From assembly GCA_002071085.1 (NCBI GenBank), contig MWEM01000004.1, forward strand, positions 4,277 through 68,276: DNA of 64,000 nt, written 5' to 3'. This document shows positions 1,807-35,144 of the stretch, piece by piece. The notes under the pieces are model-generated. The model was not told the DNA's origin. It searched no databases and saw only the letters and a list, made by a program, of their open reading frames with translations. The translations under genes were made by a program, and so were the position numbers. Source of the DNA: Thermotogota bacterium ADurb.Bin062 (GTDB lineage Bacteria; Thermotogota; Thermotogae; MWEM01). How positions within the stretch are numbered: position 1 is the stretch's first letter; every line of letters starts with the position of its first letter.

Positions 1807-2301
1807 ATGAAAAAAGTGTTCTCTATCGCGGTGGCCGTCTTTTTTATCTTGGTAGGAGTGCTCGGGTTGTTGTCTTCCCTTACGACTTTTTCGATCGATT
1901 GGCGGTTTTTGGGAGCGGCGATCCCATTATTCATCGGGCTCTTTTTCCAAGTGCAATACTTTACCGAGAAGAAAGAACCCGGATTACTGGTGCCGGGGGG
2001 TACTTTGACGGTGATCGGCATATTAGTCCTACTGGATTTTTTCTTCACCGACTCGGTGAGCGAGTATATCTGGCCTTTCTATATCCTCGCCCCGGCTGTG
2101 GGTCTTTTCCAGTTCTATTGGTTTGGCAAACGAGATCGGGCTTTGCTGATTCCGGTTACCGTGCTTTCCGTCGTGTGCGTCGTCTTTCTCCTGGTCACTC
2201 TATATCAAATTCCACCGTTTTCTTATATCTTGCCTATCTTGCTGCTCGTTATCGGAACCTTTATGCTTTACACCTACTTCAGAAAGGGGAGAAAACCGTG
2301 A
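1807..2301 (+). CDS. Integral membrane protein (4 predicted TM helices)
   Basis: 164 aa, almost entirely hydrophobic. The TGA stop overlaps the GTG start of the next gene (GTGA). Confidence 0.6.
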   Translation: MKKVFSIAVAVFFILVGVLGLLSSLTTFSIDWRFLGAAIPLFIGLFFQVQYFTEKKEPGLLVPGGTLTVIGILVLLDFFFTDSVSEYIWPFYILAPAVGLFQFYWFGKRDRALLIPVTVLSVVCVVFLLVTLYQIPPFSYILPILLLVIGTFMLYTYFRKGRKP

Positions 2302-3254
2302 AAAAACCTATCGCAGGGCTATTCTTCACATTATTGTTCTGTTTAGCCGCAGGCATTCTTTACGCAGGGGGTCCAGAGGGAATCTTATCGGAAGCGATAC
2401 GGGGGTTCACCGGTGATCATGTGGTCGGGGAACCTATAGTGGCGGGAGAGGTCGTCATCATCCCGATCTTTTCCGCGGACTTTTCTTTCGGAGAAATCTC
2501 CGGAGGCCCTGACGGAGAAGTGTGGGGAAGCGGCGCAAGCGGAAAGCTGAATTTCCTTCCTTACGCGATCGCCATCGTGGATCAAAAGGGCGTACGCGTC
2601 TTGCCGGTGTCGAATAAAAAAACGTTCTTCGAACAGGTCGTAGAAGCGCTTCCAAAACTAATGCCGATCGTTCAACAGGTGATCGGGTACTTTTCTTTAA
2701 ATTCCGGGAGCGCCGCCCTCGAGATGCCAAAAACGGGCTCCGAACAGATAATAGACGTGGAAACCTTACAACCCACCGATCGAGTGGCCGAACTCTACCA
2801 CCGTGTTCAACTGGGCTTACCACCCGAAGACTATCAGGAGATCTTAGCGGAAGCGCGCGAGTTGCTGCCTGAAGACCCGGGAAACGCCAAGCTTCACTCG
2901 GTGAACGCCTATGCGACGATGATGATGATCCAAAAAGCAGGCCCGTTGCAACAGATCCGCATGGCGCTGGAAGCTCAAAAAGAGATCGACACGGCGCTGT
3001 CTCTGGATCCCAACGATATTTTAGGTCTGATCAGCCAAGGGTGGATGAATCTACACAATCCGATGGGCCGTATCGACCTCGCCGAGGCTGCCTTCGAAAA
3101 AGTGTTGTCTATCGATCCCGAACACCTCGAGGCGCTGATGGGCCTCACGATGGTCTATGAGAAGATGGGTCGGTCCGAAAAGGTCAAGGAATGGGCCGAA
3201 AAAGGGTTGGCTTTGGACCCGGAAAACGAGTATTTCTTAAACCTCATCCATTGA
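2298..3254 (+). CDS. Secreted TPR-repeat lipoprotein/periplasmic protein
   Basis: Likely GTG start at 2298 (RBS AAAGGGGA upstream). The ORF-track N-terminal extension from 1899 overlaps the previous gene in another frame. Signal peptide KKPIAGLFFTLLFCLAAGILYAGG. C-terminal TPR-like helices (EALMGLTMVYEKMGRSEKVKEWAEKGLALDPENEYF). Confidence 0.6.
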   Translation: MKKPIAGLFFTLLFCLAAGILYAGGPEGILSEAIRGFTGDHVVGEPIVAGEVVIIPIFSADFSFGEISGGPDGEVWGSGASGKLNFLPYAIAIVDQKGVRVLPVSNKKTFFEQVVEALPKLMPIVQQVIGYFSLNSGSAALEMPKTGSEQIIDVETLQPTDRVAELYHRVQLGLPPEDYQEILAEARELLPEDPGNAKLHSVNAYATMMMIQKAGPLQQIRMALEAQKEIDTALSLDPNDILGLISQGWMNLHNPMGRIDLAEAAFEKVLSIDPEHLEALMGLTMVYEKMGRSEKVKEWAEKGLALDPENEYFLNLIH

Positions 3255-3351
3255 GCCTGTTCCATTCAGGTGAGGAATGGATGGGAGATACCGGACGAAA
3301 GCGAAGCTTAACAGCGCTTTCGTCTATTTTTGTCCTGTGTGAGTAAGATCT

Positions 3352-6096
3352 ATGGGGGGGATTGCGATGGCGCCAGAAAAACATCTCGCGCTTTTCTATC
3401 AAGACCGTGAGCACCAAAGACGTATGATGATGCCGTTTTTTTCCGAGTGCCTGAAGCAAGATCTCAAGGTGCTCTACATCACCAATGACGAAACCACGCG
3501 GTGGATCGACGGTTTATTTTCGAAGCTCACCGTTTCTTTGGACAAACACCCGAAAGACCAACAGATCAAGGCGTGGACTGCCGAATCCGTTTATCTGAGA
3601 GAAGGAACCCTGAATTTCGATTCGATCATCAGGATACTGCAGCGGGAGGAAAAACGTGCGGAGTCTGAGGGTTTTGAAGGGTTATCCTTTTGTTTGGAAG
3701 TCACCCACATCCTCTTGAAGCTCTATTCTCTTTCTTCTTTCAGAACTTTTATGAACGCCTTGAACGTCTTTCTCGCCGGCAATCACCGGATTCTGTTTCT
3801 ATATCAATCCTCGATCATCGAGGCGGTATCGTTAATGCAGATTTTAACCGCCCATCCCTACATCGCCGTGGGCGACGAGTTCATCAAGAACCCATACTAT
3901 ACCGCTCCGGAAAAGAACCCTGCGCAAGTTTTCTTCACCTATCTGATGCAAAATCACGAATACTTGGAAACGATCGCCGTGAATCGAGAAAAGATCCGAG
4001 AGATCACCCTCGCGCGCGATCGCTTTGAAGGCCTGTGGCGATCCGCGACCGGCGCGTTGGACGAAACCAAGGGGGCTCTGACCTCTTTGGAGCAAGCGTT
4101 GAAGGAAAAGACCGCTTCCGAGGAGAACTTTCGAGAGGAGGCGGAACGTTTGCTGCGATTGTCGTCCGAGCAGGCCCGTGGCCTATCGGTTATGGAAGAG
4201 CGGCACAAGGAGCTCGTAGAGAGGGAGCAAGTCCAAAACCAAGAGACCCAACGCTTACAGGCGCTCCTTTCTCAGGCCGAAATCCGCGACTCAGAACGGA
4301 CCGACCGGGTGACCTGGTTGGAGAGCCAAAACCATCATCTTAAGGATGAATTGGAACGTCTCGAGAAAGAAAAGTCCGAAGCTGAGTCGAAGTTTTCTGA
4401 ATTTTTCCAAGGAAAGGCGCTGGAGATCAAATCGCTCGAAGAGAGTCAAATGAAAGAGCGGATAGAGTGGAACGAGGTCAAGAGAGACTTAGAGGATAGG
4501 GTCGGGGATTTGACGCAACAGTCCCTGAGAGAAAAGAGTCGGTTTGAAGAGGAGATCTCCGCTTACATTCGAGCCATAGACAGGTTGGAAACCGAACTTG
4601 CCAATCAGAAAAGTCTGACGATCGAATCTGAGATAGAGCGACACCGCTTGGAAGCTTCTTTGGCGGAGCAGGAGGAAACCCTCGATCTGCGTCGTCAGGA
4701 GGTGCGCTCGGCCCAAGAAACACTCTTGAAGGAAAAAGAGGAGTGGACCGCGAAGATCAAGGTGCTCGAAACCCAGTTAACGTTGGGGATCGAAGAAGGC
4801 CGACGCACTGAAAAAGCCCTTAAAGAGGCACTGAGTGAGAAGGCCGCACAGAATGACCGTATCGAAGCGCTTACGTTGGAGTCTTCTATGGCGAAAACCG
4901 AGCGCACGGACTTGTTTAGAGAGCTTGAGCAGGTCAAGGCGCTTCATAAGGCAGAAACGGAATCCAGGCAGGAAAGCGAGCGGAAAACCGGGGCTTTGCT
5001 TGCGGAGAGAGAACAGTATCGTTCTGAAAAAGAAAGGTTAAGGCGAGAGATCGAAACCGTCTCCGATCGTATCGAAGCCCTTTCCGCGGAATTGAACGCC
5101 CTGGAAGTCGAGAAACAGGCTTGGAAAGAAGAGCGGAGCGGCTACTTGGAGAAGATCGCCCAGTTGACCGAGCAAATAGAAAGAACGGCCCAAATGAAAG
5201 ACGAGCTCGAGCTGTTCTGCGAGGACGCAAGAATCCGGAGCGAAAATTCTTCGCGGGAATTGGAGAGCGCAAGGCAGACGATCCTAGAATTGAGCGCGCA
5301 GAAAGAAGGGCTTCTCCAAGACTTGGAGAACGGAAAGGCCCAGATAACCTCGCTGTCTGCTCAAGTCGAAGAAGCAAAAGAGATGGCTGAGAGGAAACGC
5401 AAATGTTTGGGGGATTTGAAGCTAAGGTTGGAACAACAAGAAACCTCCGAACTGCGTCTAAGAAAAGAGTTGGCGGAATCGAACAAATCATTGGCCGAAT
5501 CTCGAGCCCTTAACGAAGACTTGAACGCGAAAGAACTCGAATGCCGAGACCGCATCGAGCACTTGAAGATACGGCTCGATCAGGAAGAAAGCCTTTTCCA
5601 AGAGGTTCAGAAGGAAATTTTCTCCTATAAAGCGCAAATCAGCATCTTGGAGGAGCGTCTCAAAGATGAGGAAATACGACATCGAGAGAAAGACCGATTC
5701 GCGGCCGATTTGACAGGGTTAGTCGAGTTGCTCAAAACCGAAAACGAAGAGGTACGCGAACAGTATCGGCAGATCAGGGATTTGAAAAACCGCTTGGAAA
5801 CTCTTTGGATGGCGAAAGGGCTAGAGCCTGGGATTGCTCGAAAGAATGAAAGACTAGCGTCCGCCTATAGCCTCGGGATCGTATCTAAATGTGCCGCCCC
5901 TGACGACGGGGAGGTCGGAGACCACGAGTGTAGTCAAGAGGAGCGGGAGGAGAGGGACGTTCAAGTCAAACTCCTTCAAGAGACTGTCGAGAGTTTACAG
6001 AGAGAACGTTCCGAATTGCTCTCGTTATTAGAGGTAGCCGACGACGAGCTCAAGAAGGCTCAGAGACCGGAAGAGGATTTTTTAAGCAGAGACTAA
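3352..6096 (+). CDS. MEDS-domain (KaiC/RecA-like, no Walker motifs) protein fused to a coiled-coil rod of about 700 aa
   Basis: N-terminal about 210 aa (HLALFYQDREHQRRMMMPFFSECLKQDLKVLYITNDETTRWIDGL...GEFIKNPYY) fits the MEDS pattern (FY..-e.....F...GL...e.hLYI....NPYY). Residues about 215-914 are E/R/K/L/Q heptad-rich coiled coil with no terminal globular domain and no P-loop. Alternative start ATG 3367 has a better RBS (GGGGGGGA). Confidence 0.6.
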   Translation: MGGIAMAPEKHLALFYQDREHQRRMMMPFFSECLKQDLKVLYITNDETTRWIDGLFSKLTVSLDKHPKDQQIKAWTAESVYLREGTLNFDSIIRILQREEKRAESEGFEGLSFCLEVTHILLKLYSLSSFRTFMNALNVFLAGNHRILFLYQSSIIEAVSLMQILTAHPYIAVGDEFIKNPYYTAPEKNPAQVFFTYLMQNHEYLETIAVNREKIREITLARDRFEGLWRSATGALDETKGALTSLEQALKEKTASEENFREEAERLLRLSSEQARGLSVMEERHKELVEREQVQNQETQRLQALLSQAEIRDSERTDRVTWLESQNHHLKDELERLEKEKSEAESKFSEFFQGKALEIKSLEESQMKERIEWNEVKRDLEDRVGDLTQQSLREKSRFEEEISAYIRAIDRLETELANQKSLTIESEIERHRLEASLAEQEETLDLRRQEVRSAQETLLKEKEEWTAKIKVLETQLTLGIEEGRRTEKALKEALSEKAAQNDRIEALTLESSMAKTERTDLFRELEQVKALHKAETESRQESERKTGALLAEREQYRSEKERLRREIETVSDRIEALSAELNALEVEKQAWKEERSGYLEKIAQLTEQIERTAQMKDELELFCEDARIRSENSSRELESARQTILELSAQKEGLLQDLENGKAQITSLSAQVEEAKEMAERKRKCLGDLKLRLEQQETSELRLRKELAESNKSLAESRALNEDLNAKELECRDRIEHLKIRLDQEESLFQEVQKEIFSYKAQISILEERLKDEEIRHREKDRFAADLTGLVELLKTENEEVREQYRQIRDLKNRLETLWMAKGLEPGIARKNERLASAYSLGIVSKCAAPDDGEVGDHECSQEEREERDVQVKLLQETVESLQRERSELLSLLEVADDELKKAQRPEEDFLSRD

Positions 6097-6267: not shown

Positions 6268-8487
6268 ATGGGGAGAAAGGGTCGAGATTTTCTTCTATTT
6301 TTACCGATCTTACTATCGCTTCTTGCGCTATTCTCGAGTTGTGCGCAGGTGAGCGGTCGGATAAACCCACCTGAGACGAAAATTGAGACGAAAACTCAAA
6401 AATTCGGCCCTTCGGGTGTCACCATTGCCTTTTCCGGCAAGGATGAGCGGACCCCGCCAGAAAAACTCACGTACGCCTATTGGGTCTACCGACTCGTTGA
6501 ACCTACGGAAAAAAATGCGAAGAGCGACCCCTTCACCTTCGAAAGAAAGCCTGTTCTCGAAGCCTCCTCTACCGTTGCGCAAGCGGCCTTGGACAGTCAG
6601 CGCCTTAAAGAAGGGCAGTTCTTGTTCGCTGTCGTGGCGGTGAACGAGTTCGGGTTGGCTGACGAAAGCCCGGCAGAGCACGTTTTCCGAATCGACCTGA
6701 CCCCGCCTGCTCCCCCGCAGGTCGAAGCGATTCTGAAAGCGGGCAAAGTCAAGGTGGCCTGTGACTACGACGACACGCCGGAGGATCTTGCCGGTTATGC
6801 CTTCACCGCGCTCTCCAACAACGATTCGCGAACTACGGAGCAACCCATCGGGATTTGGACTTTTCCTGCGAAGCTAGGAGAGGTTTACGAGATCGAAGTG
6901 TACGCGTACGATGATGTGGGAAATCGCTCCAAAACGGCAACCCTCGAATGCGACGCCTCGGAAGACCATCCACCGGTCTTGCTTACGGCGCTCCCCGCTC
7001 TGCTAGGCGTAAAAACCGTTGAGATCGAACTGGACTACTATGATGATTGGGATTCGCAGACCCAAATAGCCATAGAGGCGACGATCTCCAGCGTAGCCCT
7101 CAAAATCAAAGACGGTCGCCTTCAAATCAACTACGATCAGCTTTCCGAAGGCACGAACACCATCTTATTGGAGCTGAAGGATACAAACAAACACGTACAC
7201 AGAGTGCAAAAGGAAGCCTTCGTAGACCTGACGCCTCCGCAAATACCCGATGAGCTGTCTATTCAAAACCTGTCGAACGGCTATATGGTCAGTTGGAAAA
7301 AGGCGGTGGAGGCCGATTCTTATGCGCTGTACGGATCCAATGACGGTAACGATTGGGAACAGATCGGCACGACCAACGATCAGAAACTTTATTCGCCCCA
7401 ACGGTTTCTGCATTTTGCCGTTTCTGCTTTCGACAAAGCCGGCAACGAAAGCCATATCTCCTACCCCGTTCGAACTTACGATGAGATGTACTCTCCGGTG
7501 ATCAGCTCCACGATAGACAGCATCGGAGGCAATACGCTCCTGACGACGCTCTTCTCCCCTTACCTCATTAAAAGCCATCTGGTCATTCCAGATAACGTTT
7601 CTTTGGCCTTCGAGCGGGGAGTCGAGATCACCTTCGTGGACGAGGGTGAATTGGAAATAGAGGGTGAACTGATCTCCATCCCCTCTCGGACGGACCGGTA
7701 CACTCGTTTTCTCATTCAGAGGGAACCGAACGGCCAACCCTTCATTAAAGTCGGAAAGGGTAACGTATGGTTGGAAAAGATCATTTTTGAAAATCCGGGG
7801 AAAAACGGATGGTTGTTCGCGATGAGCCGGAACAGCAACATCTTAATCAACGACGCCCAAATAAAGGGTTTTGAAACCGTCGTGTGTTGCAATAGCTCCG
7901 ATAGCTTTCAGATCACGGAGTCCGAGGTGGAGGCCGAAAACTTCGTCGTTGGAGACTCCGTGAAGAATATGAAGATCACGTGCAGCGCGATTCGAGCCAA
8001 AAACGGCATTAGTCTGAACAATGTGCAGAACCTTTTCTTATCCGAGACCATTTTGGAATGCGGCGAGTCATTGATGACTACATCCGGACTCAGCAACATC
8101 AAGATAGAGAACTCGACCCTACTTTCCTCGCGTAACGGCATACAGGCTCAGAAGCTCACAGTCATTGAACTGTTCGATTCCTCGATCTCCGCATCTAATA
8201 CGGCCCTAGCGATAAATGGCGCCTCTTCCTTGAATATACGTAAATCGAAGATCAGCGATTCCGAAGTGGGTGTGTCCGCGATGCAGAGCAGTTACGTCTC
8301 TATAAGCGAAAGCGTGATAAGCGGATGCGACCGGGGCGTGCAAGTGGTCAACAGCGACCTGTCCATCAACGACTCCACCTTCGAGCAAAACGCCACGGCT
8401 GTGGCTTTACAAGGCCGTAACGCGTTCGAGCAAAAGAAAGTGGTCTTTACGGGCAACGACCTCGATATCAGCCGAGATGAACCGTAG
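6268..8487 (+). CDS. Surface/periplasmic lipoprotein with FN3-like domains and a C-terminal right-handed parallel beta-helix (pectate-lyase-like repeats)
   Basis: Signal peptide with lipobox LFSSC. FN3-like segments with conserved W/Y/G spacing. C-terminal third is rich in repeated N/S/I/V turns typical of beta-helix (NSSDSFQITESEVEAENFVVGDSVKNMKITCSAIRAKNGISLNNVQNLFLSETILE...). Confidence 0.55.
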   Translation: MGRKGRDFLLFLPILLSLLALFSSCAQVSGRINPPETKIETKTQKFGPSGVTIAFSGKDERTPPEKLTYAYWVYRLVEPTEKNAKSDPFTFERKPVLEASSTVAQAALDSQRLKEGQFLFAVVAVNEFGLADESPAEHVFRIDLTPPAPPQVEAILKAGKVKVACDYDDTPEDLAGYAFTALSNNDSRTTEQPIGIWTFPAKLGEVYEIEVYAYDDVGNRSKTATLECDASEDHPPVLLTALPALLGVKTVEIELDYYDDWDSQTQIAIEATISSVALKIKDGRLQINYDQLSEGTNTILLELKDTNKHVHRVQKEAFVDLTPPQIPDELSIQNLSNGYMVSWKKAVEADSYALYGSNDGNDWEQIGTTNDQKLYSPQRFLHFAVSAFDKAGNESHISYPVRTYDEMYSPVISSTIDSIGGNTLLTTLFSPYLIKSHLVIPDNVSLAFERGVEITFVDEGELEIEGELISIPSRTDRYTRFLIQREPNGQPFIKVGKGNVWLEKIIFENPGKNGWLFAMSRNSNILINDAQIKGFETVVCCNSSDSFQITESEVEAENFVVGDSVKNMKITCSAIRAKNGISLNNVQNLFLSETILECGESLMTTSGLSNIKIENSTLLSSRNGIQAQKLTVIELFDSSISASNTALAINGASSLNIRKSKISDSEVGVSAMQSSYVSISESVISGCDRGVQVVNSDLSINDSTFEQNATAVALQGRNAFEQKKVVFTGNDLDISRDEP

Positions 8488-9178
8488 TTTTGCCGAATTC
8501 GAGCGGTCGCAAAACTACTACGAGGCGATAACGGGAGCGAGTGAAGGGATTCCAAAAGAGCATCGGATAACCCACGCCACGACTCTGTTGCTATGGTACT
8601 GCGGGATTCCCCCTAAAGACGCCTTCTTCGCCGAAATCGGGTGCGGCGTCGGTTTTTCTATGTGCTGGATGGCGAAGACCCACGGGATACGGGGAATCGG
8701 TATCGAAAAGCAAACGGAACTAAAGGATTCTTTCGACCGTCTTGCGCAAAGAGCTGGGGTGTCCGGACAGGTGTCTTTTCTTCCACTCTCCGCCGAAGAG
8801 GTTCCCAAAGCTTACTCCGCCGGTTCTTGCGACTTCGTGTTTTCCAACCCTCCACATTTCGAGCATCAACGCGGGAAATCCTATAGGGATTCGATTCGCC
8901 AAACCTTTCGCTCCCTGGAGGGCCCAGCCTACGAAAGCTTCTGTTTCGCGATCGCGCACCTCCTCAAACCGCGCCGGCGCTTTTATTTGGTCCTCGCCCC
9001 TCAGTACCTACCAGAATGGATAGAGCACCTCTCCGAGCTTCGATTGAGAGTGAAGAACCTGTGTTTCGTTCACGGTAAACCAGGAAAGCACGCGGAACTC
9101 GTTTTGGTGAAAGGAATAAAGGAAGGAAACCCCGGTTTCTTGGTGGTCGATCCTCCGGTTTTTTTGAAAGAGGGTTAA
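8477..9178 (+). CDS. Class I SAM-dependent methyltransferase (TrmN6/YfiC-like, NPPH motif)
   Basis: EIGCGVGFSMCWMA (motif I) and FVFSNPPHFE (amino-methyltransferase motif IV). The ATG overlaps the upstream stop (ATGA...TAG). Confidence 0.55.
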   Translation: MNRSFAEFERSQNYYEAITGASEGIPKEHRITHATTLLLWYCGIPPKDAFFAEIGCGVGFSMCWMAKTHGIRGIGIEKQTELKDSFDRLAQRAGVSGQVSFLPLSAEEVPKAYSAGSCDFVFSNPPHFEHQRGKSYRDSIRQTFRSLEGPAYESFCFAIAHLLKPRRRFYLVLAPQYLPEWIEHLSELRLRVKNLCFVHGKPGKHAELVLVKGIKEGNPGFLVVDPPVFLKEG

Positions 9179-9181
9179 GTC

Positions 9182-9255
9182 TGGCTGGGAGAGGAGGATT
9201 CGAACCTCCACTTACGGATCCAGAGTCCGTAGTCCTACCGTTAGACGATCTCCCA
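9182..9255 (-). tRNA. tRNA-Gln (anticodon CTG) with encoded CCA
   Basis: Minus-strand sequence TGGGAGATCGTCTAACGGTAGGACTACGGACTCTGGATCCGTAAGTGGAGGTTCGAATCCTCCTCTCCCAGCCA. Acceptor stem TGGGAGA/TCTCCCA, anticodon stem ACGGA/TCCGT with loop CTCTGGA, T-arm GGAGG-TTCGAAT-CCTCC. Confidence 0.85.
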
Positions 9256-9312
9256 AAACACCCGCAATTATACACGAAAGCCCTATCGATGTCAAACGGG
9301 CGCCTGCTACGG

Positions 9313-10812
9313 TCAGCCCCTCCGACTCCATCTGAGAATCAGCCTTTTCATCTCCTGTTTTCTCAAAAGGAGTAGGGCCAAAAGGTACACCAAAACGCCG
9401 CACACGAGCTCTAAAACCACGAGGGGTTTGGAGTAGCTGTAGGTCTTAGCGATCATCAGCAGGACGGCGCTCATCACCGCGGTCGCGCTGACCGTTTTCA
9501 GGAGTTCGGAGAGCTGTCTTCGCGTCATTGTGAGCCCTTTTATCCTGATGAGATGGACGAGCAGGAAAGCGACAGGTGTCATCCCCGCGAAAGAGGTTGC
9601 GAGGGCGACCCCGTAAGCGCCTTGGATCGGCGCTAAAGTGAAGTCTAGAATAACGTTCGTCCCTACCGAGATACAGCTCGCGAAAAACGCGACATTCCCT
9701 TTTCCCAGCGCGTACTCCGCTTTGGAAAGCAGGAAATAGACGCAATAGAACGGAAGTCCGAAGAGATACCCGAGTAGGATCTTCGAAGTGAAGACCGTCT
9801 CATAAATCCCGAATGCCCCTCTCTGAAAGAGGAAGACGACCAATCCTTCCCTCAACAGGATCATCCCCGCAGCCGCCGGCAGGATGAGCAACAACAGCTT
9901 TTCCAAGTTGTCGGTGACCATTTCTCGGAAAGAATCCAAAGAGCGTTTGGAGAGCTGGGATAAGGCAACGGTCGACACCGACACGCCGATGACCCCCAAA
10001 GGCAGCTGATACAAACGATTGGCGTACTGTAGCAAAGAGATGCTCCCTTGACCCAGGTGCGAAACGACGATCGTATCGATCAGAGAATTGATCTGCGTGA
10101 TCGAAACGGCGGCCATCGAGCTTAAAAATAGGCTCGAGAACTCTTTCATATCCTCTCTCACGAAATCGATCTCGAAACGGTACCCCGTCTTTTTCTTTCC
10201 GATAAACAAAACGCTGATGAATTGGAAAGCTCCGCCGATCAAAAAAAAGACCGTCGGCCCAAGGATACGAGGGGTGAAGTAGGGAGAGAGCAAGATACCG
10301 GCGATCGTGAACACGTTGTGGATCGCGGGCGAGAAGGCCGGAACGAAATAGATGTCGTGGCTATTCAGAATTCCCGTTTTGATCGCCCATAGGCTGATAA
10401 AGATGATGAAAGGGAAGGCGACAACCCCACACATCACGGCCATTTCTCGTATTGCCGGTTCCATACCCGGCGCGAACAAGTAGATCAAATAAGGCATAAA
10501 ATAGTAACCTAAGAGGGTGCAAAGGATCAGGATTGGCACGAACACCGTAAAAATGGTGTTGGCGAATCGTGTGGCGGAACGCGAATCGATCATAGCCCGC
10601 TTGTTGTAGATCGGAACGAAGGCGCTCTGCAGAGCGCCTTCACCGAAAATACGTCGTAAGAAAAAAGGAAGTAAAACCGCTACGAGATAGGCGTCATATT
10701 CGGGAGAACTCCCGAATACGTTGGCGAACATCGCGTCCCGGACAAGTCCCAACACGCGGCTCATCAAGGTGGCAACGGCCATGTAGAGAGAAAACTTGAT
10801 CGTTTTCGACAC
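9313..10812 (-). CDS. murJ: Lipid II flippase MurJ (MviN)
   Basis: 499 aa, multi-TM. N-terminus LMSRVLGLVRDAMFANVFGSSPEYDAYLVA is typical of MurJ. Confidence 0.85.
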   Translation of the reverse strand: MSKTIKFSLYMAVATLMSRVLGLVRDAMFANVFGSSPEYDAYLVAVLLPFFLRRIFGEGALQSAFVPIYNKRAMIDSRSATRFANTIFTVFVPILILCTLLGYYFMPYLIYLFAPGMEPAIREMAVMCGVVAFPFIIFISLWAIKTGILNSHDIYFVPAFSPAIHNVFTIAGILLSPYFTPRILGPTVFFLIGGAFQFISVLFIGKKKTGYRFEIDFVREDMKEFSSLFLSSMAAVSITQINSLIDTIVVSHLGQGSISLLQYANRLYQLPLGVIGVSVSTVALSQLSKRSLDSFREMVTDNLEKLLLLILPAAAGMILLREGLVVFLFQRGAFGIYETVFTSKILLGYLFGLPFYCVYFLLSKAEYALGKGNVAFFASCISVGTNVILDFTLAPIQGAYGVALATSFAGMTPVAFLLVHLIRIKGLTMTRRQLSELLKTVSATAVMSAVLLMIAKTYSYSKPLVVLELVCGVLVYLLALLLLRKQEMKRLILRWSRRG

Positions 10813-15686: not shown

Positions 15687-18600
15687 GTGGCAAAAATCAA
15701 GTTCGCGGAGACTTGGTGGGGAGAGAGCTGGATCAGGGCCCTCGAAGAAATCGACGTGGATACGAATCGGCTGCCAAGGGGCCGCACCTATGCGAGAAAC
15801 GGGTCGGTTCTAGAAATTAAACGAACGAGAACGGGGACGATCCAAGCGAGGGTGCAGGGGCGTCGACCCGCCCCCTATCGTATACGTATCGCTTTAACGG
15901 AATGGTCGGAAGAGCAAAACGCCGCCGTCCTCGATCTAATACAAAACAGCCCCGCGCTCTCCTCCCAGCTTTTGATCGGTCAGATGCCCGAAAGTCTCGA
16001 GGCGGAGTTGGAGAAGCTTGGTGCCCGGATCTTTCCCTCTTCTTGGCGCGAAATGACGGCCTCTTGCAGTTGCCCCGACTGGGCGAATCCCTGTAAGCAC
16101 CTCGCCGCCGTCTATTACCTGCTGGCCGTCGAAATAGACAAAGACCCCTTCTTGCTCTTCGAAATGCGTGGGCTGAAAAAGAAACGGATCTTAGAAACCG
16201 CGCGGCTTACCGATCAGACCTTGAAAAGCGCGGGGTGGGTTTTCGACGTATCTCAAACTCCTGTGACCGATACATACGAAGCTCCGACCCCCACGACGGA
16301 GGAAATCGAAAGCTATATCGTGCAACCCTATCCCATCGATAAGGCGTTGGGAGTTTTAGAAAAAAATCCCCGGTTTGACGATGGCCCCCTCATCCTGCAG
16401 CTTCTGCCCACGACTTACCGGAAGATTAGAGATTATTGGAACGGAGAAGCGTTCATCGAACCCGAAGAGCCCCTTGCTCATTCGTCTTCGATAACGATAG
16501 AGCATCGCGAAGAGGGACCCGTGTTTTTGGTAGATGAGCTTTACAAAAAAGAGGTTTCTGAGCTCACAGTCGCAGATTTTTTGTTTCGGATGGAAGGGGT
16601 CAGCCTCTCGCCGCTTGCAGAAGATCACGCTACGATGCGTTGGGTGAAAGACACTCTCTCCCTCGCCCGAAGACTCATCGCGTTAAACAGCTGGGTTCCC
16701 GTTCTCTACTCGGTAGGACAAGGCGAGGACTTCGGGATCCGCTACGCCCCCGTCTACTCCCAACCGACTCTTCGCCAGAAGAAAGTGGCGTTGAACGCTT
16801 CGGTTCCCACCGGACTTATTCACGACGCCAAAAACCGCCCTCTGAAGAGAGAACAGAGCGTGGACTATCTCTTGTCCGTCTTTTTGACACAGATGGTGCA
16901 AGAGCCTTTAGGCGGTGTGCTGCCTTACTCGTCGATAGAAATGGCGCGCGTCTTCTTCCTTGGGGAGGTGTATAAGGCGGATCATTTTCAACGGCAACAG
17001 ACGAAAACGGCTGTGCAAAACTGGCTGACCCCGTTACACCTTTCCGACTCGGAGCACAATCTCGTCCTGGACATCCAGGTAACGAAAAAAACCCAGTTTT
17101 CGTTGACGGTCTCCGTGAAGCGCAAGCGCGACCTGTTTATCGACGCCGTACCGATGCAAAACTTCCTGAAAACCGCCGCGAACGGGGGCGAAAAAGAAGG
17201 GGCGCTCAAGCAGCTCGCCTGCCTTTCCGAATGGATTCCTCCCCTAAAGCGCTCTTTCGAAGAACGAACGATCCCTATCACCGTCGATGAGCTCATCCAG
17301 TTACTCAGCCAAGCGCGAGACTTCCTCGGTTTTTTCGGAGCGGAACTCGTCGTGCCGAAAGAGTTTAAGGACTTAACGCGTCCACGGGTCTTCGCGAGCG
17401 CAAGAATGAAAAGCGAACGAACGAAAGGCGTTTTAAACTTCGAAAACCTCCTCCAATTCGAATGGCGGGTCCAGTTCGGAGAAGACAACCTGTCTATAGA
17501 GGAGTTTGCGGCATTGATGAAGGGTGCGGAGCGGATCGTACTTTTCAAAGACCAGTATTGCTTGGTAGACCCTATCGAAGCGAAGAGGATGGTTGAGAAA
17601 TATATGACTTCGCCCATCATCAGTGGGCCGGAGGGGCTGCGCGCCGTATTCGCCCAGGAGCTCGACGGATACCCGCTACGCTACGGAGAGGACGTCGAAC
17701 GGCTGTTGAAGGGTTTGCGAAAAGAGCGGCGGTGCGAAGCACCGGGTACCCTCAATGGCCAATTGCGACCGTATCAGTTGAAAGGGTACCAATGGATGTT
17801 GTCGAACCTGCACAACGGGTTCAACATATGCTTGGCGGACGATATGGGTCTTGGTAAAACGATACAGGTGATCGCGGTGTTGCTCAAACTGCGCGAAAAT
17901 AAAGAGTTGACGCGCCCCGCCTTGGTCATTTGCCCTGCTTCCGTAACGCGTAACTGGCGAAAAGAGATAGAGACCTTCGCGCCGGACCTGAAGTGCGAGC
18001 TGTATGGCGGGTCGAATCGCGAGATATCAGCAGGGAAAGACGTTTGGATAACGACGTACGGTATGGTCCGATCCGAGGTAGAACGCTTGAAGAGTTTTGA
18101 GTGGAGCGTCGTAATCGTCGATGAAGCGCAGAATATCAAGAACCCCGATGCCGACCAATCTAAAGCTATCGCCCAGCTCAACGGGCAATATAAGATCGCG
18201 ATGAGCGGGACTCCAGTAGAAAACCGCGTGGCGGAACTATGGAGTCTGTTTAACTTCATTATGCCGGGATACTTAGGTCCCAGGAAAAAATTCCGAGAAG
18301 AATTCGCGATCCCCATCGAACGCCTGAACGACCCGGTTAAGACCAAGACGCTGAAACAGGCAGTCGAACCGTTTTTACTGAGAAGGTTAAAATCAGACAA
18401 GAACATCATCAAAGACCTTCCGGAAAAAGTCGTTCGGGAGGTCTACGTCACGCTCAAACCCGAACAAGCTGCTTTGTACGGCACCGTCTTAGAAGCCGCG
18501 GTAGGCGAGATAGAAAGCGCCCAAGGCATCAAGCGGAAAGGAAAGGTATTTTGGCTTCTCACCGCGCTCAAACAAATCTGCAACCACCCCGTGTCCTATA

Positions 18601-19157
18601 CCAAGAGCGGGACTCCCGTCGCCGAGCACTCCGGAAAGAGCGAGAAAGCCTTTGAATTGCTGAAAGAAGTCATCAAAAGCGGTGAAAAGGCGTTACTCTT
18701 CACCCAATACCGCGAGATGGGCGCCTTATTGGCTGCGATGACACCCGAAAAGCTAGGAATCGACCCGCTCTTTTTCCACGGCGGGCTCACCCCTAAAGAG
18801 CGAGAAAACCTCATCCTCGACTTTCAGCAGCAACCCTATCATCCATTAATGATCATTACACTGAAGGCGGGTGGCACGGGCTTAAACCTGACCGCCGCGA
18901 CCACCGTTATCCATTACGACCTATGGTGGAACCCGGCCGTCGAAAACCAGGCGACGGACAGGAGCTACCGAATCGGTCAAAAAAAAAGCGTCACCGTCCA
19001 TCGGTTACTGACCGAGAACACCTTTGAAGAACGCGTGAACGAGCTCTTACAAAAAAAGAAAGAGCTCTCCGACGCCATCGTCGGCGCTGGCGAGCATTGG
19101 ATCACGGAGATGAGCAACGAGGAAATCCGAAGCCTTTTTGAAATGAAAACAACCTAA
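15687..19157 (+). CDS. SNF2-family helicase with N-terminal SWIM zinc finger
   Basis: GTG start with RBS GAGGTGG. SWIM CxC...CxH (TASCSCPDWANPCKHLAAVYYLL). SNF2_N (LRPYQLKGYQWMLSNLHNGFNICLADDMGLGKTIQ; DEAQNIKN). Helicase_C (GGTGLNLTAATTVIHYDLWWNPAVENQATDRSYRIGQ). Confidence 0.85.
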   Translation: MAKIKFAETWWGESWIRALEEIDVDTNRLPRGRTYARNGSVLEIKRTRTGTIQARVQGRRPAPYRIRIALTEWSEEQNAAVLDLIQNSPALSSQLLIGQMPESLEAELEKLGARIFPSSWREMTASCSCPDWANPCKHLAAVYYLLAVEIDKDPFLLFEMRGLKKKRILETARLTDQTLKSAGWVFDVSQTPVTDTYEAPTPTTEEIESYIVQPYPIDKALGVLEKNPRFDDGPLILQLLPTTYRKIRDYWNGEAFIEPEEPLAHSSSITIEHREEGPVFLVDELYKKEVSELTVADFLFRMEGVSLSPLAEDHATMRWVKDTLSLARRLIALNSWVPVLYSVGQGEDFGIRYAPVYSQPTLRQKKVALNASVPTGLIHDAKNRPLKREQSVDYLLSVFLTQMVQEPLGGVLPYSSIEMARVFFLGEVYKADHFQRQQTKTAVQNWLTPLHLSDSEHNLVLDIQVTKKTQFSLTVSVKRKRDLFIDAVPMQNFLKTAANGGEKEGALKQLACLSEWIPPLKRSFEERTIPITVDELIQLLSQARDFLGFFGAELVVPKEFKDLTRPRVFASARMKSERTKGVLNFENLLQFEWRVQFGEDNLSIEEFAALMKGAERIVLFKDQYCLVDPIEAKRMVEKYMTSPIISGPEGLRAVFAQELDGYPLRYGEDVERLLKGLRKERRCEAPGTLNGQLRPYQLKGYQWMLSNLHNGFNICLADDMGLGKTIQVIAVLLKLRENKELTRPALVICPASVTRNWRKEIETFAPDLKCELYGGSNREISAGKDVWITTYGMVRSEVERLKSFEWSVVIVDEAQNIKNPDADQSKAIAQLNGQYKIAMSGTPVENRVAELWSLFNFIMPGYLGPRKKFREEFAIPIERLNDPVKTKTLKQAVEPFLLRRLKSDKNIIKDLPEKVVREVYVTLKPEQAALYGTVLEAAVGEIESAQGIKRKGKVFWLLTALKQICNHPVSYTKSGTPVAEHSGKSEKAFELLKEVIKSGEKALLFTQYREMGALLAAMTPEKLGIDPLFFHGGLTPKERENLILDFQQQPYHPLMIITLKAGGTGLNLTAATTVIHYDLWWNPAVENQATDRSYRIGQKKSVTVHRLLTENTFEERVNELLQKKKELSDAIVGAGEHWITEMSNEEIRSLFEMKTT

Positions 19158-19339: not shown

Positions 19340-20365
19340 ATGGAAAGACTGAATAACCCCCACGATAGGTTTTTCAAAGAAGTGCTGGGGGATGTCGCAA
19401 ACACCCAAGCGTTCTTAGAGACCTATCTCCCCCCTGAAGTCTTACGAGCGATCGATGTGGGCACGATACAGGCGGAAAAGGACAGCTTCATAGAACAAGA
19501 CCTGAAGGAGTTCTACGCGGATTTATTGTTTCGGGCGAACATACGAAACCGAGAAGCCTACGTGTACATTCTACTGGAGCACAAGAGCTATAGCGACTAT
19601 AACGTAGGTGTACAGCTGCTCAGGTATATGTCTGCGATATGGGACAAAGAAATAAAGAAACAAAAGAACAGACGACTACCGCTGATCTTACCGATAGTGC
19701 TGTACCAAGGGAAAGAGAAGTGGGGAGTGTCCACGCAGTTTGCGGACAGGATCGAAGGGGTCGAAACGATGGAAGGGTCTTTGAAAAAAGCTATTCCCCA
19801 CTTTGAGTATTACCTATACGATTTTTCGTCAAATAGTGGAGAGGAGATCAAAGGGCCGGACGATCTACGCCTGTATCTGGAAACGATCAGGATGGCCTCG
19901 ATCAAAGACCCGGAAAAGTTCAATGAAGCGTACGTAAGAATCACCACCGTCTTCGTCACGCGGGAAGAAACGGAAACAAGTGAAAGGCTTTACGATACTT
20001 TTATTCACTATCTCTATTATTTGATCGCACGAGAGGATTTCTTGAGACTGGTACAACTGACGCGAACGGTATCGGTGGAAAGGAGTGAAAGGATGCAAAC
20101 GATAGCGGAATGGCTTAAGCAAGAAGGGATGGAAAAAGGACTTGAGGAAGGTATGTTAAGAGGACTCGAAAGAGGGATAGAAGTCGGACGCGAGCAACTT
20201 CTTTGGAAGCAGATCTCCAAAAAATTCCCACAAATCCCGCGGACATACTACGAAAAGCTGAAAACGCTTACAATAGACCAGCTTGACAACCTAGGCTTAG
20301 AGCTGATGGATATGCAAAATGTGGAAGAGCTGAAAAAGCATTTGCATGCGAAAGCCGGACTTTAG
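19340..20365 (+). CDS. Rpn/YhgA-family recombination-promoting nuclease (PD-(D/E)XK, transposase_31) with a DUF4351-like C-terminus
   Basis: The N-terminus MERLNNPHDRFFKEVLGDVANTQAFLETYLPPEVL matches the Rpn family start (HD..FK..F......FL...LP). Acidic/His core (DLLF...YILLEHKS). C-terminal helical EKGLEEGMLRGLERGIEVGRE repeats. Visibly more A-rich than neighbouring genes. Confidence 0.7.
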   Translation: MERLNNPHDRFFKEVLGDVANTQAFLETYLPPEVLRAIDVGTIQAEKDSFIEQDLKEFYADLLFRANIRNREAYVYILLEHKSYSDYNVGVQLLRYMSAIWDKEIKKQKNRRLPLILPIVLYQGKEKWGVSTQFADRIEGVETMEGSLKKAIPHFEYYLYDFSSNSGEEIKGPDDLRLYLETIRMASIKDPEKFNEAYVRITTVFVTREETETSERLYDTFIHYLYYLIAREDFLRLVQLTRTVSVERSERMQTIAEWLKQEGMEKGLEEGMLRGLERGIEVGREQLLWKQISKKFPQIPRTYYEKLKTLTIDQLDNLGLELMDMQNVEELKKHLHAKAGL

Positions 20366-20979
20366 TCTGGAATGTTTTGGAAGAAAAAACAGGGTCCGTG
20401 TGGAGAGCACGGAGGATTCTTTGCTGGGAACTCCACACTTTTGTGTGGCAAGGTTATAGATTTTTCTATGCTGGAAACAGCGAACTTCAGTGCGGTATGG
20501 GTTCATTGTTCTCTCCGTGCCCGCCGTGCAACCCCTTTTTTCAAGACCTGCCAACTTAAAAGTTGGCGTTTCCAGAAACCAAGCCGAACAGAAGTTCGGC
20601 CTTCCCAAAGTCCGCTCTCAGGAAAACAAAAAGACCTGCCGCGCAAACAGCTCGCTCCACGGTAAATCGGGGTTTCGGTTACCAAAATCAACACGTACCC
20701 TTCCAAGACCGTAGCGAAGAAACCTTGCAATTTCGATGCCAGATGAGATACAATATATACGGAGTCTTCCTCGGATACGCCGTTTTCTTTCGGGGCTCAA
20801 CCGGGGAAGGAGAACGAGCGGCCGCGGCTATCTCGTTTACGATACGAAGTGGCTTCGGTTGAAACGGGTATTCGGATTTTTGGTTTTCCTTTTCCGGTTT
20901 TAATCGTCGAGCGATTAAGACCGTCGAAAATCAGAAAACGTTTCTTTGTGAACAGCGGTTATGAGGGGGGATCATTCGG
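20366..20979. repeat. 614-bp non-coding region containing repeat modules and at least three hairpins
   Basis: CCACACTTTTGTGTGG (20440), GCCAACTTAAAAGTTGGC (20550-20567), GCCGAACAGAAGTTCGGC (20583-20600). The T-module copy CTCTCCGTGCCCGCCGTGCAACCCCTTTTTTCAAGAC (20500-20548) matches 35230-35278. No convincing ORF. Confidence 0.7.
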
Positions 20980-21849
20980 ATGGGTCATCTCGAGCGATTT
21001 ATCAGATGGATGACGATGCAGCGGTATTCGCCGCAAACGATCAAAGAGTACAAACGGGAGATCGAGCGTTTTTTTGCTTTTCTTCAGCGTGAAAACTTGC
21101 CTTATGACGCTTTGCAGATGCCGGATATAGAAGACTACCTTTTTTCTATCGAGGCTTCCGAAAGAACGCGTAATCGCGCTCTGTCCGCGGTAAAAGCCTT
21201 CTATCGATTTTTGGTGTCACGGGGAATCCTGGCAGTCGACCCCGCGAAATCGGTGAAATCGGTACGCGTCAAGCGGAAGAACCCGGTTTTTCTTTCCGAG
21301 GGTGAGTACCTCTCTTTGTTTCATCATTTGGATGGAGAGGGCGGTTTCCTTCCGGAACGCGATCGGGTGATGATCGCCCTTCTCCTCACAACCGGAATAC
21401 GGGTGTCGGAATTGGTGCGGATCGCGTTCAAAGACATCTCGACGGATCGCGCCGGCCGGATAACCCTCGAAGTCCTCAGAAAGGGCCAGGAGATGGATTT
21501 CATCTACTTGAACTCCCAAGTGACGGCACTTTTCTCAGCCTATCTAGAAAAGAGACGGGAAATCTCGGTGGACAGCGACAAGGTTTTCCTCTCTTATCGT
21601 TTGGGCCCCCTCGAACGCTCCGCCGTCTACCGGTTGGTGCGAAAATACTTGGAGCAATGCGGTATAGAGAAAAGCAAGAAAGGCCCCCATATCCTTCGCC
21701 ATACTTTCGCCACCGCCTTGATGAAAAAAGACGTTTCGCTGTTTAAGATCAAAGAGCTGATGAATCATAAAAATATCTCTACGACGGAGAAGTATTTGCA
21801 TATCGTCGAAGAAGACCTAAAAGACGTTGTCGAACAGATAAAACTCTGA
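20980..21849 (+). CDS. Tyrosine site-specific recombinase (XerC/XerD family)
   Basis: 289 aa. N-terminal SAM-like core-binding domain. Catalytic R (GIRVSELVRI), H-x-x-R (HILRHTFAT) and Y (TTEKYLHI). RBS GAGGGGGG. Confidence 0.8.
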   Translation: MGHLERFIRWMTMQRYSPQTIKEYKREIERFFAFLQRENLPYDALQMPDIEDYLFSIEASERTRNRALSAVKAFYRFLVSRGILAVDPAKSVKSVRVKRKNPVFLSEGEYLSLFHHLDGEGGFLPERDRVMIALLLTTGIRVSELVRIAFKDISTDRAGRITLEVLRKGQEMDFIYLNSQVTALFSAYLEKRREISVDSDKVFLSYRLGPLERSAVYRLVRKYLEQCGIEKSKKGPHILRHTFATALMKKDVSLFKIKELMNHKNISTTEKYLHIVEEDLKDVVEQIKL

Positions 21850-32106: not shown

Positions 32107-33126
<1,020 letters not shown>

Positions 33127-33142
33127 TCGTCGCAAAAACATC

Positions 33143-33168
33143 GGCACGCTTCGGCGTGCCTTTTTTTA
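33143..33168 (+). terminator. Intrinsic terminator/attenuator hairpin between gap and pgk
   Basis: GGCACGCTTCGGCGTGCC followed by TTTTTTT. Confidence 0.55.
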
Positions 33169-33179
33169 AGGAGGAGAGA

Positions 33180-35144
33180 ATGGAAGCATTGACGATACGA
33201 GATGTGGAACTCACCGGGAAAAACGTGTTGATGCGTGTGGATTTCAATGTTCCGCTCGATAAGAAAACGAACCAAGTAACGGATGACACACGGATACGAG
33301 CCGCGCTGCCGACCATACGTTACGCCCTTGAGAAAGGTGCCAGAGTGATACTGCTATCCCATCTCGGAAGACCAAAAGGCGGGCCAGATCCGAAGTACAG
33401 CCTTCTTCCGGTGGTTTCAGCGCTATCTGCGCTGTTGGAGAAACCGGTTCTATTTTCAAGCGTCTTCGTCGGAGAAGAATCCGAACAAAAAGTGAGGAAA
33501 CTTCAGAACGGAGAGGTCCTCTTGCTCGAAAATACCCGTTTCGATCCGAGAGAAGAAAAGAACGACAAAGGGCTATCCCGTGAGCTGGCTACCTATGGCG
33601 ATCTGCTCATCAACGACGCCTTCGGCACCGCCCACAGAGCGCACGCCTCTAACGTCGGGGTAGCCGATTATCTGCCCTCCTATAGTGGTTTCTTGATGGA
33701 AAAAGAACTCCGCTTCCTCGGTAAACTCGTGGAGAAGCCGGAGCACCCCTATGTGGCCGTTTTGGGAGGCGCGAAAGTGTCCGATAAAATCGGGGTCATC
33801 GAAAACCTTCTGACCAAAGCGGATAGGCTGTTGATCGGGGGGGCGATGATGTTTACCTTTTGGAAAGCCCTCGGCTTTGAAACGGGCAGCTCCTTGGTAG
33901 AAGAAGACAAGATACCCTTGGCGAAGGCGCTCCTCGAGAAATCGGGAGAACGATCCGTCGAAATTTTGTTACCGATAGACGTTGTCGTTTCCGAAAAGAT
34001 GGAAAGCGGTCAAATCAAGCGGACGGTCACCCGGGAAGCCGGGGTACCTCGCGGATGGATGGGATTGGATATCGGAGAACGAACGATCGCTTTGTTCAAA
34101 GAGGCGATGAAAGGCGCAAAAACGATCGTATGGAACGGACCTATGGGTGTCTTCGAACTCCCGGAATTCGAGGAAGGTACGCGAGCGATCGCTGTGGCGC
34201 TATCGGAGCGGAAGGACGCCACAACCGTCGTTGGAGGCGGAGACAGCGCAGCGGCGATCGCCAAATTCGGGCTGGAAGAAGAAGTGACCCACGTTTCTAC
34301 GGGCGGCGGAGCCTCGCTCGAGATGTTGGAAGGGAAAGAAATGCCCGGTGTGGCGAGCCTATGCGTTCGGAAGAGTCGGAAAATGGTCGTCGCAGGTAAT
34401 TGGAAAATGTACAAAACGCCTGATGAGGCGGGGGCGTTCGCCCGCCGTTTGCTTCAAGTGTTACCGAAGTCTTTCGAACCCGTCGAAGTGGTCTTGTGCC
34501 CTCCTTACGTAGACCTTCACGCGGTGCGCGATGTTCTCGTCGGAACACCGTTGGCCATAGGAGCTCAGAACGTCTACCCCGCCGAAGAAGGCGCCTTCAC
34601 CGGAGAGATATCCCCTCGGATGCTCGTCGCTTCCGGTGTCCGCTACGTCATCGTCGGTCATTCAGAGCGGCGAGCGATTTTCAAAGAAACCAACGATTTC
34701 ATCAACACGAAACTCAAAAGTCTTTTGGCTTCCGGCCTTAAGCCGATCTTCTGCGTAGGCGAAACCTTGAGCCAGCGTGAGAGCGGAGAGACTTTGTCGG
34801 TGTTGGATAACCAAGTGACGGAAGGGTTAAAGGGGCTTCCCGCCCCGGATGTGGAGAAGATCGCCATCGCTTACGAGCCGGTGTGGGCCATCGGCACGGG
34901 GAAAGTCGCGTTGCCTTGGCAAGCCCAGGAGGCGTGTTCGCGAATCAGAGAAAAGCTGAGCGACCTGTACGGCGCGGAGGTGGCCTCGAAGGTTTCGATC
35001 CTTTATGGAGGGAGTATCAAGCCTGAAAACTTCGCGAGCCTGATGGCGCGCCCGGACGTCGATGGCGGATTGGTCGGTGGCGCCAGTTTGCAGGAGTCCT
35101 TCGCCGATTTGGTCAAAACGGCGTTGACCTTTCGGCCTATTTAG
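33180..35144 (+). CDS. pgk/tpi: Bifunctional phosphoglycerate kinase / triosephosphate isomerase (in-frame fusion)
   Basis: ATG 33180 ([27 protein letters not shown]) with RBS AAGGAGGAG. PGK signatures (LSHLGRPKG). Continues without a stop into TIM ([11 protein letters not shown]...[12 protein letters not shown]). The ORF-track start at 33081 overlaps gap and is not supported. Confidence 0.9.

Follow-up and report, generated by a model that had tools for sequence, protein, structure and literature searches.

A MEDS domain at the head of a long coiled-coil rod: a head-rod-tail protein plan in Thermotogota

Introduction

Galperin et al. (2018, PMC5847659) placed MEDS among inactivated KaiC-like domains; they list it as a sensor module of histidine kinases and report MEDS-REC and REC-MEDS fusions from Thaumarchaeota. 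FrzS of Myxococcus xanthus combines a pseudo-receiver domain with a long coiled coil and a tail at the C-terminus, and all three are needed for its dynamic localisation (PMC1974792). Here we describe a gene from the metagenome-assembled Thermotogota bacterium ADurb.Bin062 whose product carries a MEDS domain at the N-terminus of a coiled-coil rod of more than 600 residues. The gene lies in a 64,000-nucleotide (nt) stretch of DNA, further referred to as the window, which covers positions 4,277 to 68,276 of the forward strand of contig MWEM01000004.1 (GenBank assembly GCA_002071085.1). Coordinates below are those of the window, and the product is called the window protein.

A first-pass annotation, made by a model from the sequence alone, had described the product as a MEDS domain fused to a giant coiled coil and had considered this architecture unusual. 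We followed it up with profile searches, structure prediction, periodicity and conservation analysis and comparison of gene neighbourhoods. The result is a small clade of MEDS proteins with a common plan of head, rod and tail, for which the role of a regulated scaffold is tentatively proposed.

Domain architecture

The gene is an open reading frame (ORF) on the forward strand at 3352..6096, with 914 codons plus a stop and ATG as its first codon; these limits were confirmed exactly in the window sequence. The motifs quoted in the first-pass annotation were all found in the translation as well: HLALFYQDREHQ at residues 11-22, LKVLYITNDE at residues 38-47 and NPYY at residues 180-183.

Residues 11-169 (3382..3858, forward strand) match the Pfam MEDS profile PF14417 nearly end to end (profile positions 2-161 of 161; E = 6e-21). 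The match scores 75.4 bits, where the gathering threshold is 29.8 bits. The proposed MEDS identity of the N-terminal region is thus upheld over the complete profile. The globular head as a whole spans approximately residues 9-189. The window head was aligned with 33 other MEDS domains from the exhaustive search described below. In these 34 diverse sequences H11, G107, E116 and H168 are invariant, and all four are kept in the window head; P169 and N180 are conserved in at least 90% of the sequences. Several other positions, hardly variable in canonical MEDS domains, are replaced in the heads of the coiled-coil clade, namely LRVTGEMTW by LSFCLEVTH, EYE.KLN by TFMNALN, and CQY by FLY.

The AlphaFold2 (AF2) model of the head, built from the 34-sequence alignment, is a three-layer alpha/beta domain with a mean predicted local distance difference test score (pLDDT) of 87 and a predicted template modelling score of 0.82. 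In a Foldseek search with this model the top structural match was FlaH/ArlH of the archaellum motor (FlaH, E = 1e-5), and KaiC was matched at about 5e-4; the structural matches also included Elp4/5/6 and the N-terminal domain of BcsE, which have an inactive RecA fold. At the sequence level, a search of PDB with the 34-sequence head profile gave marginal matches only (SSO2452, E = 0.034; KaiC, E = 0.31), and a search of PDB with the single sequence gave nothing meaningful.

No Walker A motif was found anywhere in the window protein, either as [AG]....GK[ST] or even as GK[ST], and the motif is absent from its relatives too. At the usual site of the P-loop, the gap between strand 1 and helix 1 of the head model is two residues. 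The KaiC profile PF06745 has no match in the window protein, and sub-threshold KaiC matches are seen in distant MEDS relatives only. Membership in the KaiC ATPase family is ruled out by the missing PF06745 match and the missing Walker A motif. Judged by its sequence and predicted structure, the head is an inactivated MEDS domain of the KaiC/RecA fold that has kept the family-invariant residues and lost the P-loop. The fold and the missing P-loop agree with the published classification of MEDS as inactivated KaiC (PMC5847659). The first-pass annotation had assumed exactly such a KaiC/RecA-like fold without Walker motifs, and had named failure of the MEDS profile search or a hidden ATPase domain as grounds for giving up its view; the profile search succeeded, and no ATPase domain came to light. 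No transmembrane segment or signal peptide was found in the window protein.

The head is followed by the coiled-coil rod, approximately residues 206-821 (3967..5814, forward strand), which was delimited by composition, lack of proline, periodicity and AF2 helices. Residues 211-914 contain 19.5% Glu, 13.4% Leu and 10.2% Arg. Not a single proline occurs from residue 191 to residue 825, and the helix sets in already at residue 190. The hydrophobic periodicity of 3.5 residues reaches z = 8.2 in residues 211-821 and z = 20.4 in residues 532-821, and in neither case did any of 500 shuffled sequences score as high. The 95th percentile of shuffled sequences is exceeded by 31% of 28-residue windows in the rod and by 43% in its distal half. 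In the full-length AF2 model, helices are predicted at residues 190-291, 311-470, 532-660, 674-821 and 862-904. The model is that of a monomer, built from a five-sequence alignment with pLDDT 62, and is good for the helix boundaries and not for topology.

The rod is not uniform along its length. Residues 211-470 show local heptads with several register shifts, and the global periodicity score of this part is z = 0.3. The next stretch (residues 471-531; 4762..4944, forward strand) has weak heptads, contains G479 and G483, and is predicted by AF2 with pLDDT below 50 and without a helix. It may be a flexible joint; no comparable break in the middle of the rod is seen in the homologues P0003, P0007 and P0011. 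From there to its end the rod keeps a single heptad register (290 residues, 532-821; 4945..5814, forward strand). Here position a is rich in Ile and Leu (I9, L9), with some Lys and Arg, and position d is Leu in 17 of 41 cases. Among g-to-e' (i, i+5) charge pairs, 11 are favourable and 3 unfavourable, a balance matched by 1.9% of shuffles. This is the pattern of an in-register parallel dimer and, being taken from residue statistics, modest evidence for one. The first-pass annotation had described an uninterrupted heptad coil of about 700 amino acids (aa). Its coiled-coil nature stands; its continuity does not, given the register shifts in residues 211-470, the weak stretch 471-531 and the linker at residues 822-861. 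The length needs correction too, to about 610-630 aa.

The linker (residues 822-861; 5815..5934, forward strand) is variable and non-helical. It contains P826, P850 and five glycines, is modelled by AF2 as coil with pLDDT below 50, has no invariant column, and is deleted in the homologue P0005. It leads to a conserved C-terminal helix of 43 residues (862-904; 5935..6063, forward strand), which is predicted by AF2 and contains invariant residues, with the motif E..ELL.LLE.AD.EL at residues 885-900 (nt 6004-6051). Likewise, in P0007 and P0011 a short helix or tail follows a break containing proline and glycine. No Pfam or NCBIfam domain was found past the rod, where the remaining 93 residues are accounted for by the linker and one helix. 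The absence of a C-terminal head noted in the first-pass annotation was thereby borne out.

Conservation differs sharply between these parts. In the conservation scan of the window family alignment (A1), the share of invariant columns is highest in the head (49%), followed by the C-terminal helix (26%) and the rod (17%), and is 0% in the linker. In a comparison with the syntenic locus L003, identity is 38% for the rod and 64% for the head, the latter being close to the values of the housekeeping neighbours MurJ (69%) and M20 peptidase (75%). Within the rod, the scan of A1 revealed four conserved islands on the forward strand: LEESQ..ERIEWNE.K...E at residues 362-381 (4435..4494), LE.E....KS..IE..IE.HRLE at residues 412-441 (4585..4674), E..ERK.K....LK...EQ at residues 677-695 (5380..5436) and, strongest of all, EHL.I.L.QEE.LFQEVQKEIFSYKAQ at residues 736-767 (5557..5652). 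Their conservation refers to this alignment, as the rod alignment between subfamilies is unreliable. The pattern of constraint suggests a freely drifting spacer with specific docking or assembly sites at the four islands. The fourth island is a candidate site of partner binding or assembly.

Homologues

Relatives were collected by an exhaustive HMMER search of 1.84 billion representative proteins with the head profile, which found 1,748 representatives with MEDS at 50% clustering. The window protein's own family ranks first, at more than 390 bits. It is followed by P0007 (969 aa, 127 bits) and by the group of P0009, P0011, P0012 and P0013. By the heptad script, P0007, P0011 and P0012 are again MEDS domains with a giant coiled coil. 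P0007 is full-length, and so is P0011 (1,059 aa), which has a single coiled-coil run of 813 residues, from 216 to 1028. The sequence of P0012 is truncated, and P0009 is a shorter truncated fragment whose sequence runs on into coiled coil. All three subfamilies (those of the window protein, P0007 and P0011/P0013) have a long proline-free rod, a Pro/Gly segment near the C-terminus and a short terminal helix or tail.

The 77 MEDS proteins ranked below these are of another kind. Among them, 41 contain PAS, 37 HATPase_c, 23 HisKA, 14 GAF, 9 REC, 6 HD and 5 DUF835. Since the coiled-coil proteins rank directly next to the window protein's own family and the signalling architectures below them, the plan of head, rod and tail defines a small MEDS clade of three subfamilies and is shared by each of its full-length members. 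The view that the protein departs from the normal MEDS architecture, in which the domain is coupled to PAS, GAF, kinase or HD modules, is supported by this ranking. In 146 of 150 relatives the MEDS domain is N-terminal.

Source names assign the window subfamily and the P0007 subfamily to Thermotogota, and all identified members of the clade come from this phylum. All clade members originate from metagenome assemblies, and none of the retrieved members or loci belongs to a cultured strain. A word-indexed homologue search with the head alone returned one fragment. A search of metagenome contigs with the family-level alignment pattern added only 2 further loci, which indicates that the family is rare.

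The members are already present in public databases, and the novelty consists in the recognition of the architecture. The NCBI entries are named "MEDS domain-containing protein [Thermotogota bacterium]". In the data of the Joint Genome Institute (JGI), P0003, P0004 and cluster members are labelled "chromosome segregation ATPase". This label is wrong, being an artefact of coiled-coil composition, and should not be spread further. In the literature search we found no paper on a MEDS-coiled-coil protein, none on coiled-coil cytoskeletal proteins in Thermotoga, and no MEDS ligand or mechanism named in the papers retrieved.

Gene structure and genomic context

The gene is considered genuine because full-length homologues with 66%, 41%, 40% and 38% identity occur in independent metagenomes and the sequence cluster of the window protein is present on dozens of contigs. 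The true start of translation is probably Met6 (nt 3367) and not the first ATG of the ORF, which gives a protein of 909 aa. This start is favoured because a Shine-Dalgarno-like run GGGGGGG is located ahead of Met6 at 3355-3361, the first residue of P0005 aligns with Met6 in alignment A1, and the NCBI copies of the window protein are 909 aa long.

A terminator-like hairpin followed by a T-run is located at 3293..3333 (forward strand; predicted RNA folding energy -17.6 kcal/mol, z = -2.7), between the upstream gene and the MEDS-coiled-coil gene and about 20-35 nt ahead of the start codon. By its appearance it is a putative terminator. Being so near the start codon, it leaves hardly any space for a promoter of the MEDS-coiled-coil gene's own. 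In the scan for promoters and terminators, the counts were no higher than in shuffled sequence.

The upstream neighbour (2298..3254, forward strand) encodes a protein that begins with a hydrophobic signal and in which Pfam identifies a YtfJ-like domain and TPR repeats (the YtfJ-TPR protein). The downstream neighbour (6268..8487, forward strand) encodes a putative lipoprotein of 739 aa with a C-terminal parallel beta-helix and a weak NosD match; it opens with the lipoprotein-like signal LLALFSSC, in line with the flanking lipoprotein gene mentioned in the first-pass annotation. The end of this gene is overlapped by 11 nt by a gene for an S-adenosylmethionine (SAM) methyltransferase (8477-9178, forward strand). 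Farther away, a small multi-pass membrane protein is encoded upstream, and MurJ, M20 peptidase and M23/LysM peptidase are encoded on the other strand after the methyltransferase. In PADLOC, no match was found for the window protein, the YtfJ-TPR protein or the 739-aa lipoprotein. The SAM methyltransferase matches mad2 at 47 bits, which probably reflects the generic methyltransferase domain only.

The order of genes around the MEDS-coiled-coil gene is kept in loci L001, L002, L003, L006 and L009, and about 12 genes are collinear in related Thermotogota. Since about a dozen unrelated housekeeping genes keep their order as well, the synteny reflects common descent and not a functional operon. The YtfJ-TPR gene lies upstream in L001, L002, L003 and L009 and is missing beside P0007 and P0011; together with the 739-aa lipoprotein gene, it is a conserved neighbour within the window subfamily only. 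A conserved operon with the flanking lipoprotein genes was rejected, as the whole region is collinear and the distant subfamilies are located elsewhere.

In the locus of P0007 (L004), an L,D-transpeptidase with LysM and YkuD domains is encoded directly upstream (9037-9942) and is preceded by RemA-Gmk-RpoZ, with an alanine racemase near. In the P0011/P0013 subfamily, a type IV prepilin leader peptidase gene (Peptidase_A24) ends 23 nt upstream on the same strand (L005, 2-343; L008, 22-345), and this subfamily may be linked to pilus biogenesis. Overall, the neighbourhoods hint weakly at the cell envelope and peptidoglycan and, in one subfamily, at type IV pilus biogenesis; we treat them as leads and not as evidence.

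Several other features of the window were recorded. One ORF of 687 aa at 33081-35144 (forward strand) combines phosphoglycerate kinase and triosephosphate isomerase (PF00162 and PF00121), and we take it to be the fusion known from Thermotoga, which speaks for the window being of Thermotogota origin. Two large SNF2-family helicases are encoded at 15687-19157 (forward strand; with a SWIM zinc finger and DUF3670) and at 44581-47835 (reverse strand). Between the first of these genes and MutS2, the region 19340-21849 (forward strand) encodes a YhgA-like transposase (PF04754 and DUF4351) and a tyrosine recombinase and may be a remnant of a mobile element. ORFs having no Pfam match at E <= 1e-6 are located at 40556-42076 (forward strand, 506 aa), 53920-55548 (reverse strand, 542 aa) and 62418-63998 (reverse strand, 526 aa). 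Finally, a tRNA-Gln gene with the CTG anticodon (9182-9295, reverse strand) is preceded by a promoter that matches the sigma-70 consensus TTGACA-17-TATAAT at 12 of 12 positions (9295-9267).

Discussion

Predicted from its sequence, the window protein is soluble and cytoplasmic and has no catalytic domain. We infer that this protein of MEDS head, rod, linker and C-terminal helix functions as a regulated scaffold or tether, a reading that we favour tentatively and to which we give slightly less than an even chance. Two chains would pair in parallel and in register to form a rod about 90 nm long (616 residues x 0.1485 nm, at full extension), and both MEDS heads would lie at the same end. A partner or ligand would be bound there, by the slowly evolving head, and the four islands of the rod, as well as the C-terminal helix, would be sites of docking or self-association. 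Such a protein would be neither an enzyme nor a classical sensor. Filament formation and a sensing role, both suggested in the first-pass annotation, are conjectures. Elp4/5/6 and the N-terminal domain of BcsE are examples of inactive RecA-fold domains, which serve as interaction and oligomerisation modules. As these are among the structural matches of the head, a scaffold is more plausible than a sensor of metabolites.

Several points weigh against the scaffold reading. A partner or ligand is known for no member of the clade. The orientation of the dimer is derived solely from the residue statistics of one 290-residue stretch, where 1.9% of shuffles do as well. The AF2 model of the whole protein, with pLDDT 62 from a five-sequence alignment, is poor and describes a monomer. 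The rod near the head has many register shifts, and parts of it may not be canonical coiled coil. Given the positions replaced in the heads of the coiled-coil clade, the ligand of typical MEDS domains may not carry over to it. The neighbourhood differs between the subfamilies, so guilt by association lends no support. Finally, the likeness to FrzS is one of architecture only, the fold of the MEDS head being different from that of the receiver domain.

Other explanations can be set against the regulated scaffold. The protein could be a chromosome-organising ATPase of the SMC/Rad50 type, as the JGI name of P0003, P0004 and cluster members says. A long coiled coil combined with a head of the RecA-superfamily fold would fit this, and there are weak NCBIfam matches to TIGR02168 (36 bits) and TIGR02169 (25 bits). 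However, the cut-offs of these models are 567 and 729 bits, respectively, and the alignments cover only positions 224-510 and 670-971 of the models, in their coiled-coil arms. No member has a Walker A motif; a C-terminal head, hinge and zinc hook are absent; SMC_hinge and SMC_N give no match; and the MEDS domain that forms the head is whole and unsplit. Membership in the SMC/Rad50/RecN group is effectively refuted, with Walker A, a C-terminal half-head, a hinge or hook and a score at the equivalog level all lacking, and we regard an ATPase of this type as extremely improbable; the statement of the first-pass annotation that the protein is not an SMC is well founded. The topology of an SMC protein might nevertheless be retained without the ATPase. 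The chain would then reverse at residues 471-531, the two arms would pair into an antiparallel rod of about 42 nm, and the C-terminal helix would dock by the head. The arms 190-470 and 532-821 are nearly equal (281 and 290 residues) around a low-heptad centre with Gly479 and Gly483, and a conserved helix tethered by a flexible linker is what one would expect of an element that docks at another site. Yet the central break is taken in part from the AF2 model of a monomer, and long helices are prone to be folded back in models of this sort. The break is not observed in P0003, P0007 and P0011, the last of which has one 813-residue run; mirrored indels between the arms were looked for in alignment A1 and not found; and the composition of positions a and d and the i,i+5 charge pairs fit an in-register parallel dimer. 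We therefore consider the fold-back rod unlikely.

The protein may also be a true one-component sensor with a detached output, in which MEDS binds a metabolite, the role first proposed for this domain, and the rod relays the signal mechanically to an effector acting in trans at the C-terminal helix. All family-invariant residues of MEDS are kept, the head is strongly constrained, and MEDS is mostly N-terminal in signalling proteins (146 of 150). On the other hand, the protein lacks an output domain, its gene lacks a conserved operon partner, and the papers found name no MEDS ligand. Signalling helices are tens of residues long, and relay through this rod, which exceeds 600 residues, has register breaks and drifts fast, is implausible, so that a sensor of this kind has a low probability in our view. 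A similarly low one is assigned to a specific version of the scaffold, in which the protein would be a cytoskeletal element of the envelope or pilus that organises peptidoglycan synthesis or a type IV pilus-like machine. In its favour are MurJ, the M23/LysM peptidase and envelope lipoproteins encoded close by in the window subfamily, the LysM-YkuD L,D-transpeptidase directly upstream of P0007 with alanine racemase near, Peptidase_A24 encoded on the same strand 23 nt ahead of the gene in both P0011/P0013 contigs, and FlaH/ArlH as the top structural match of the head. An origin in anti-phage defence or a mobile element is far less probable than these. SMC-like coiled-coil proteins and degenerate P-loop folds do occur in many defence systems, the distribution of the architecture is rare and patchy, and the neighbouring methyltransferase matches PADLOC mad2 (47 bits). 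But the window protein and both flanking proteins have no PADLOC match, the mad2 match covers just a generic methyltransferase domain, and no nuclease, ATPase or other effector domain is present. Moreover, at least four related genomes show the gene in a stable collinear position amid housekeeping genes.

The regulated scaffold can be extended to a more general, and doubtful, proposal. The MEDS-coiled-coil proteins might constitute an unrecognised cytoskeletal or scaffold class, so far from Thermotogota only, in which the inactivated KaiC domain gates the assembly or placement of the ~90-nm rod upon a cellular signal. If true, this would make them a counterpart, from the KaiC lineage, of the pseudo-receiver-headed FrzS and AglZ, and MEDS domains would be switches of assembly or localisation, beyond sensing linked to kinases. 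MEDS is widespread and functionally obscure, and the clade presents it as the sole globular module on a structural rod. This argues that MEDS can act via protein-protein interaction or oligomerisation, with no kinase to feed, and makes the clade a simple test case of one domain and one rod. The window protein is also a candidate for a lineage-specific coiled-coil cytoskeletal or scaffold protein of Thermotogota.

Compared with described proteins, the head resembles those of the MEDS signalling proteins (DcmR, MEDS-PAS/GAF-histidine kinases, MEDS-HATPase_c_2, MEDS-HD and REC-MEDS) in the domain itself, in the invariant H, G, E and HP residues and in its N-terminal position. Unlike them, the window protein lacks PAS, GAF, kinase, HD, HTH and receiver domains and carries over 600 residues of coiled coil instead; no output module of signal transduction (kinase, HTH, HD or receiver) was found in the protein or encoded among its conserved neighbours. 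To KaiC-family proteins, among which we count FlaH/ArlH and the inactive RecA-like scaffolds (Elp4/5/6, the N-terminal domain of BcsE and Rad51 paralogues), the sequence similarity is marginal, and none of them has a long coiled-coil rod. SMC, Rad50 and MukB share the long coiled coil and have a head within the broad P-loop/RecA-like structural realm, but the window protein has no Walker A, split head, hinge or hook, and the SMC models reach about 6% of the cut-off, in the arms only. With crescentin, FilP, Scy and Ccrp it shares a long, segmented, cytoplasmic heptad rod with stutters and breaks and rapid drift under conserved periodicity. Those proteins are nearly all rod, with short non-globular ends, whereas the window protein has a globular head of 200 aa of the signalling type.

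FrzS and AglZ, polar-localising regulators of motility, are built on the same plan, in which a catalytically dead signalling domain at the N-terminus is joined to a long coiled coil that ends in a short tail; they too are cytoplasmic and lack an enzymatic output. They differ in that their head is a CheY-like receiver and not a MEDS domain of the inactivated KaiC type; there is no sequence homology, they belong to another phylum, and no link of the window protein to motility is known. With 258 residues, the rod of FrzS has less than half the length of that of the window protein. As Response_reg has no match in the window protein, this protein is similar to FrzS and AglZ in plan and is not a member of their family. 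By analogy only, FrzS and AglZ are the nearest working model for this architecture.

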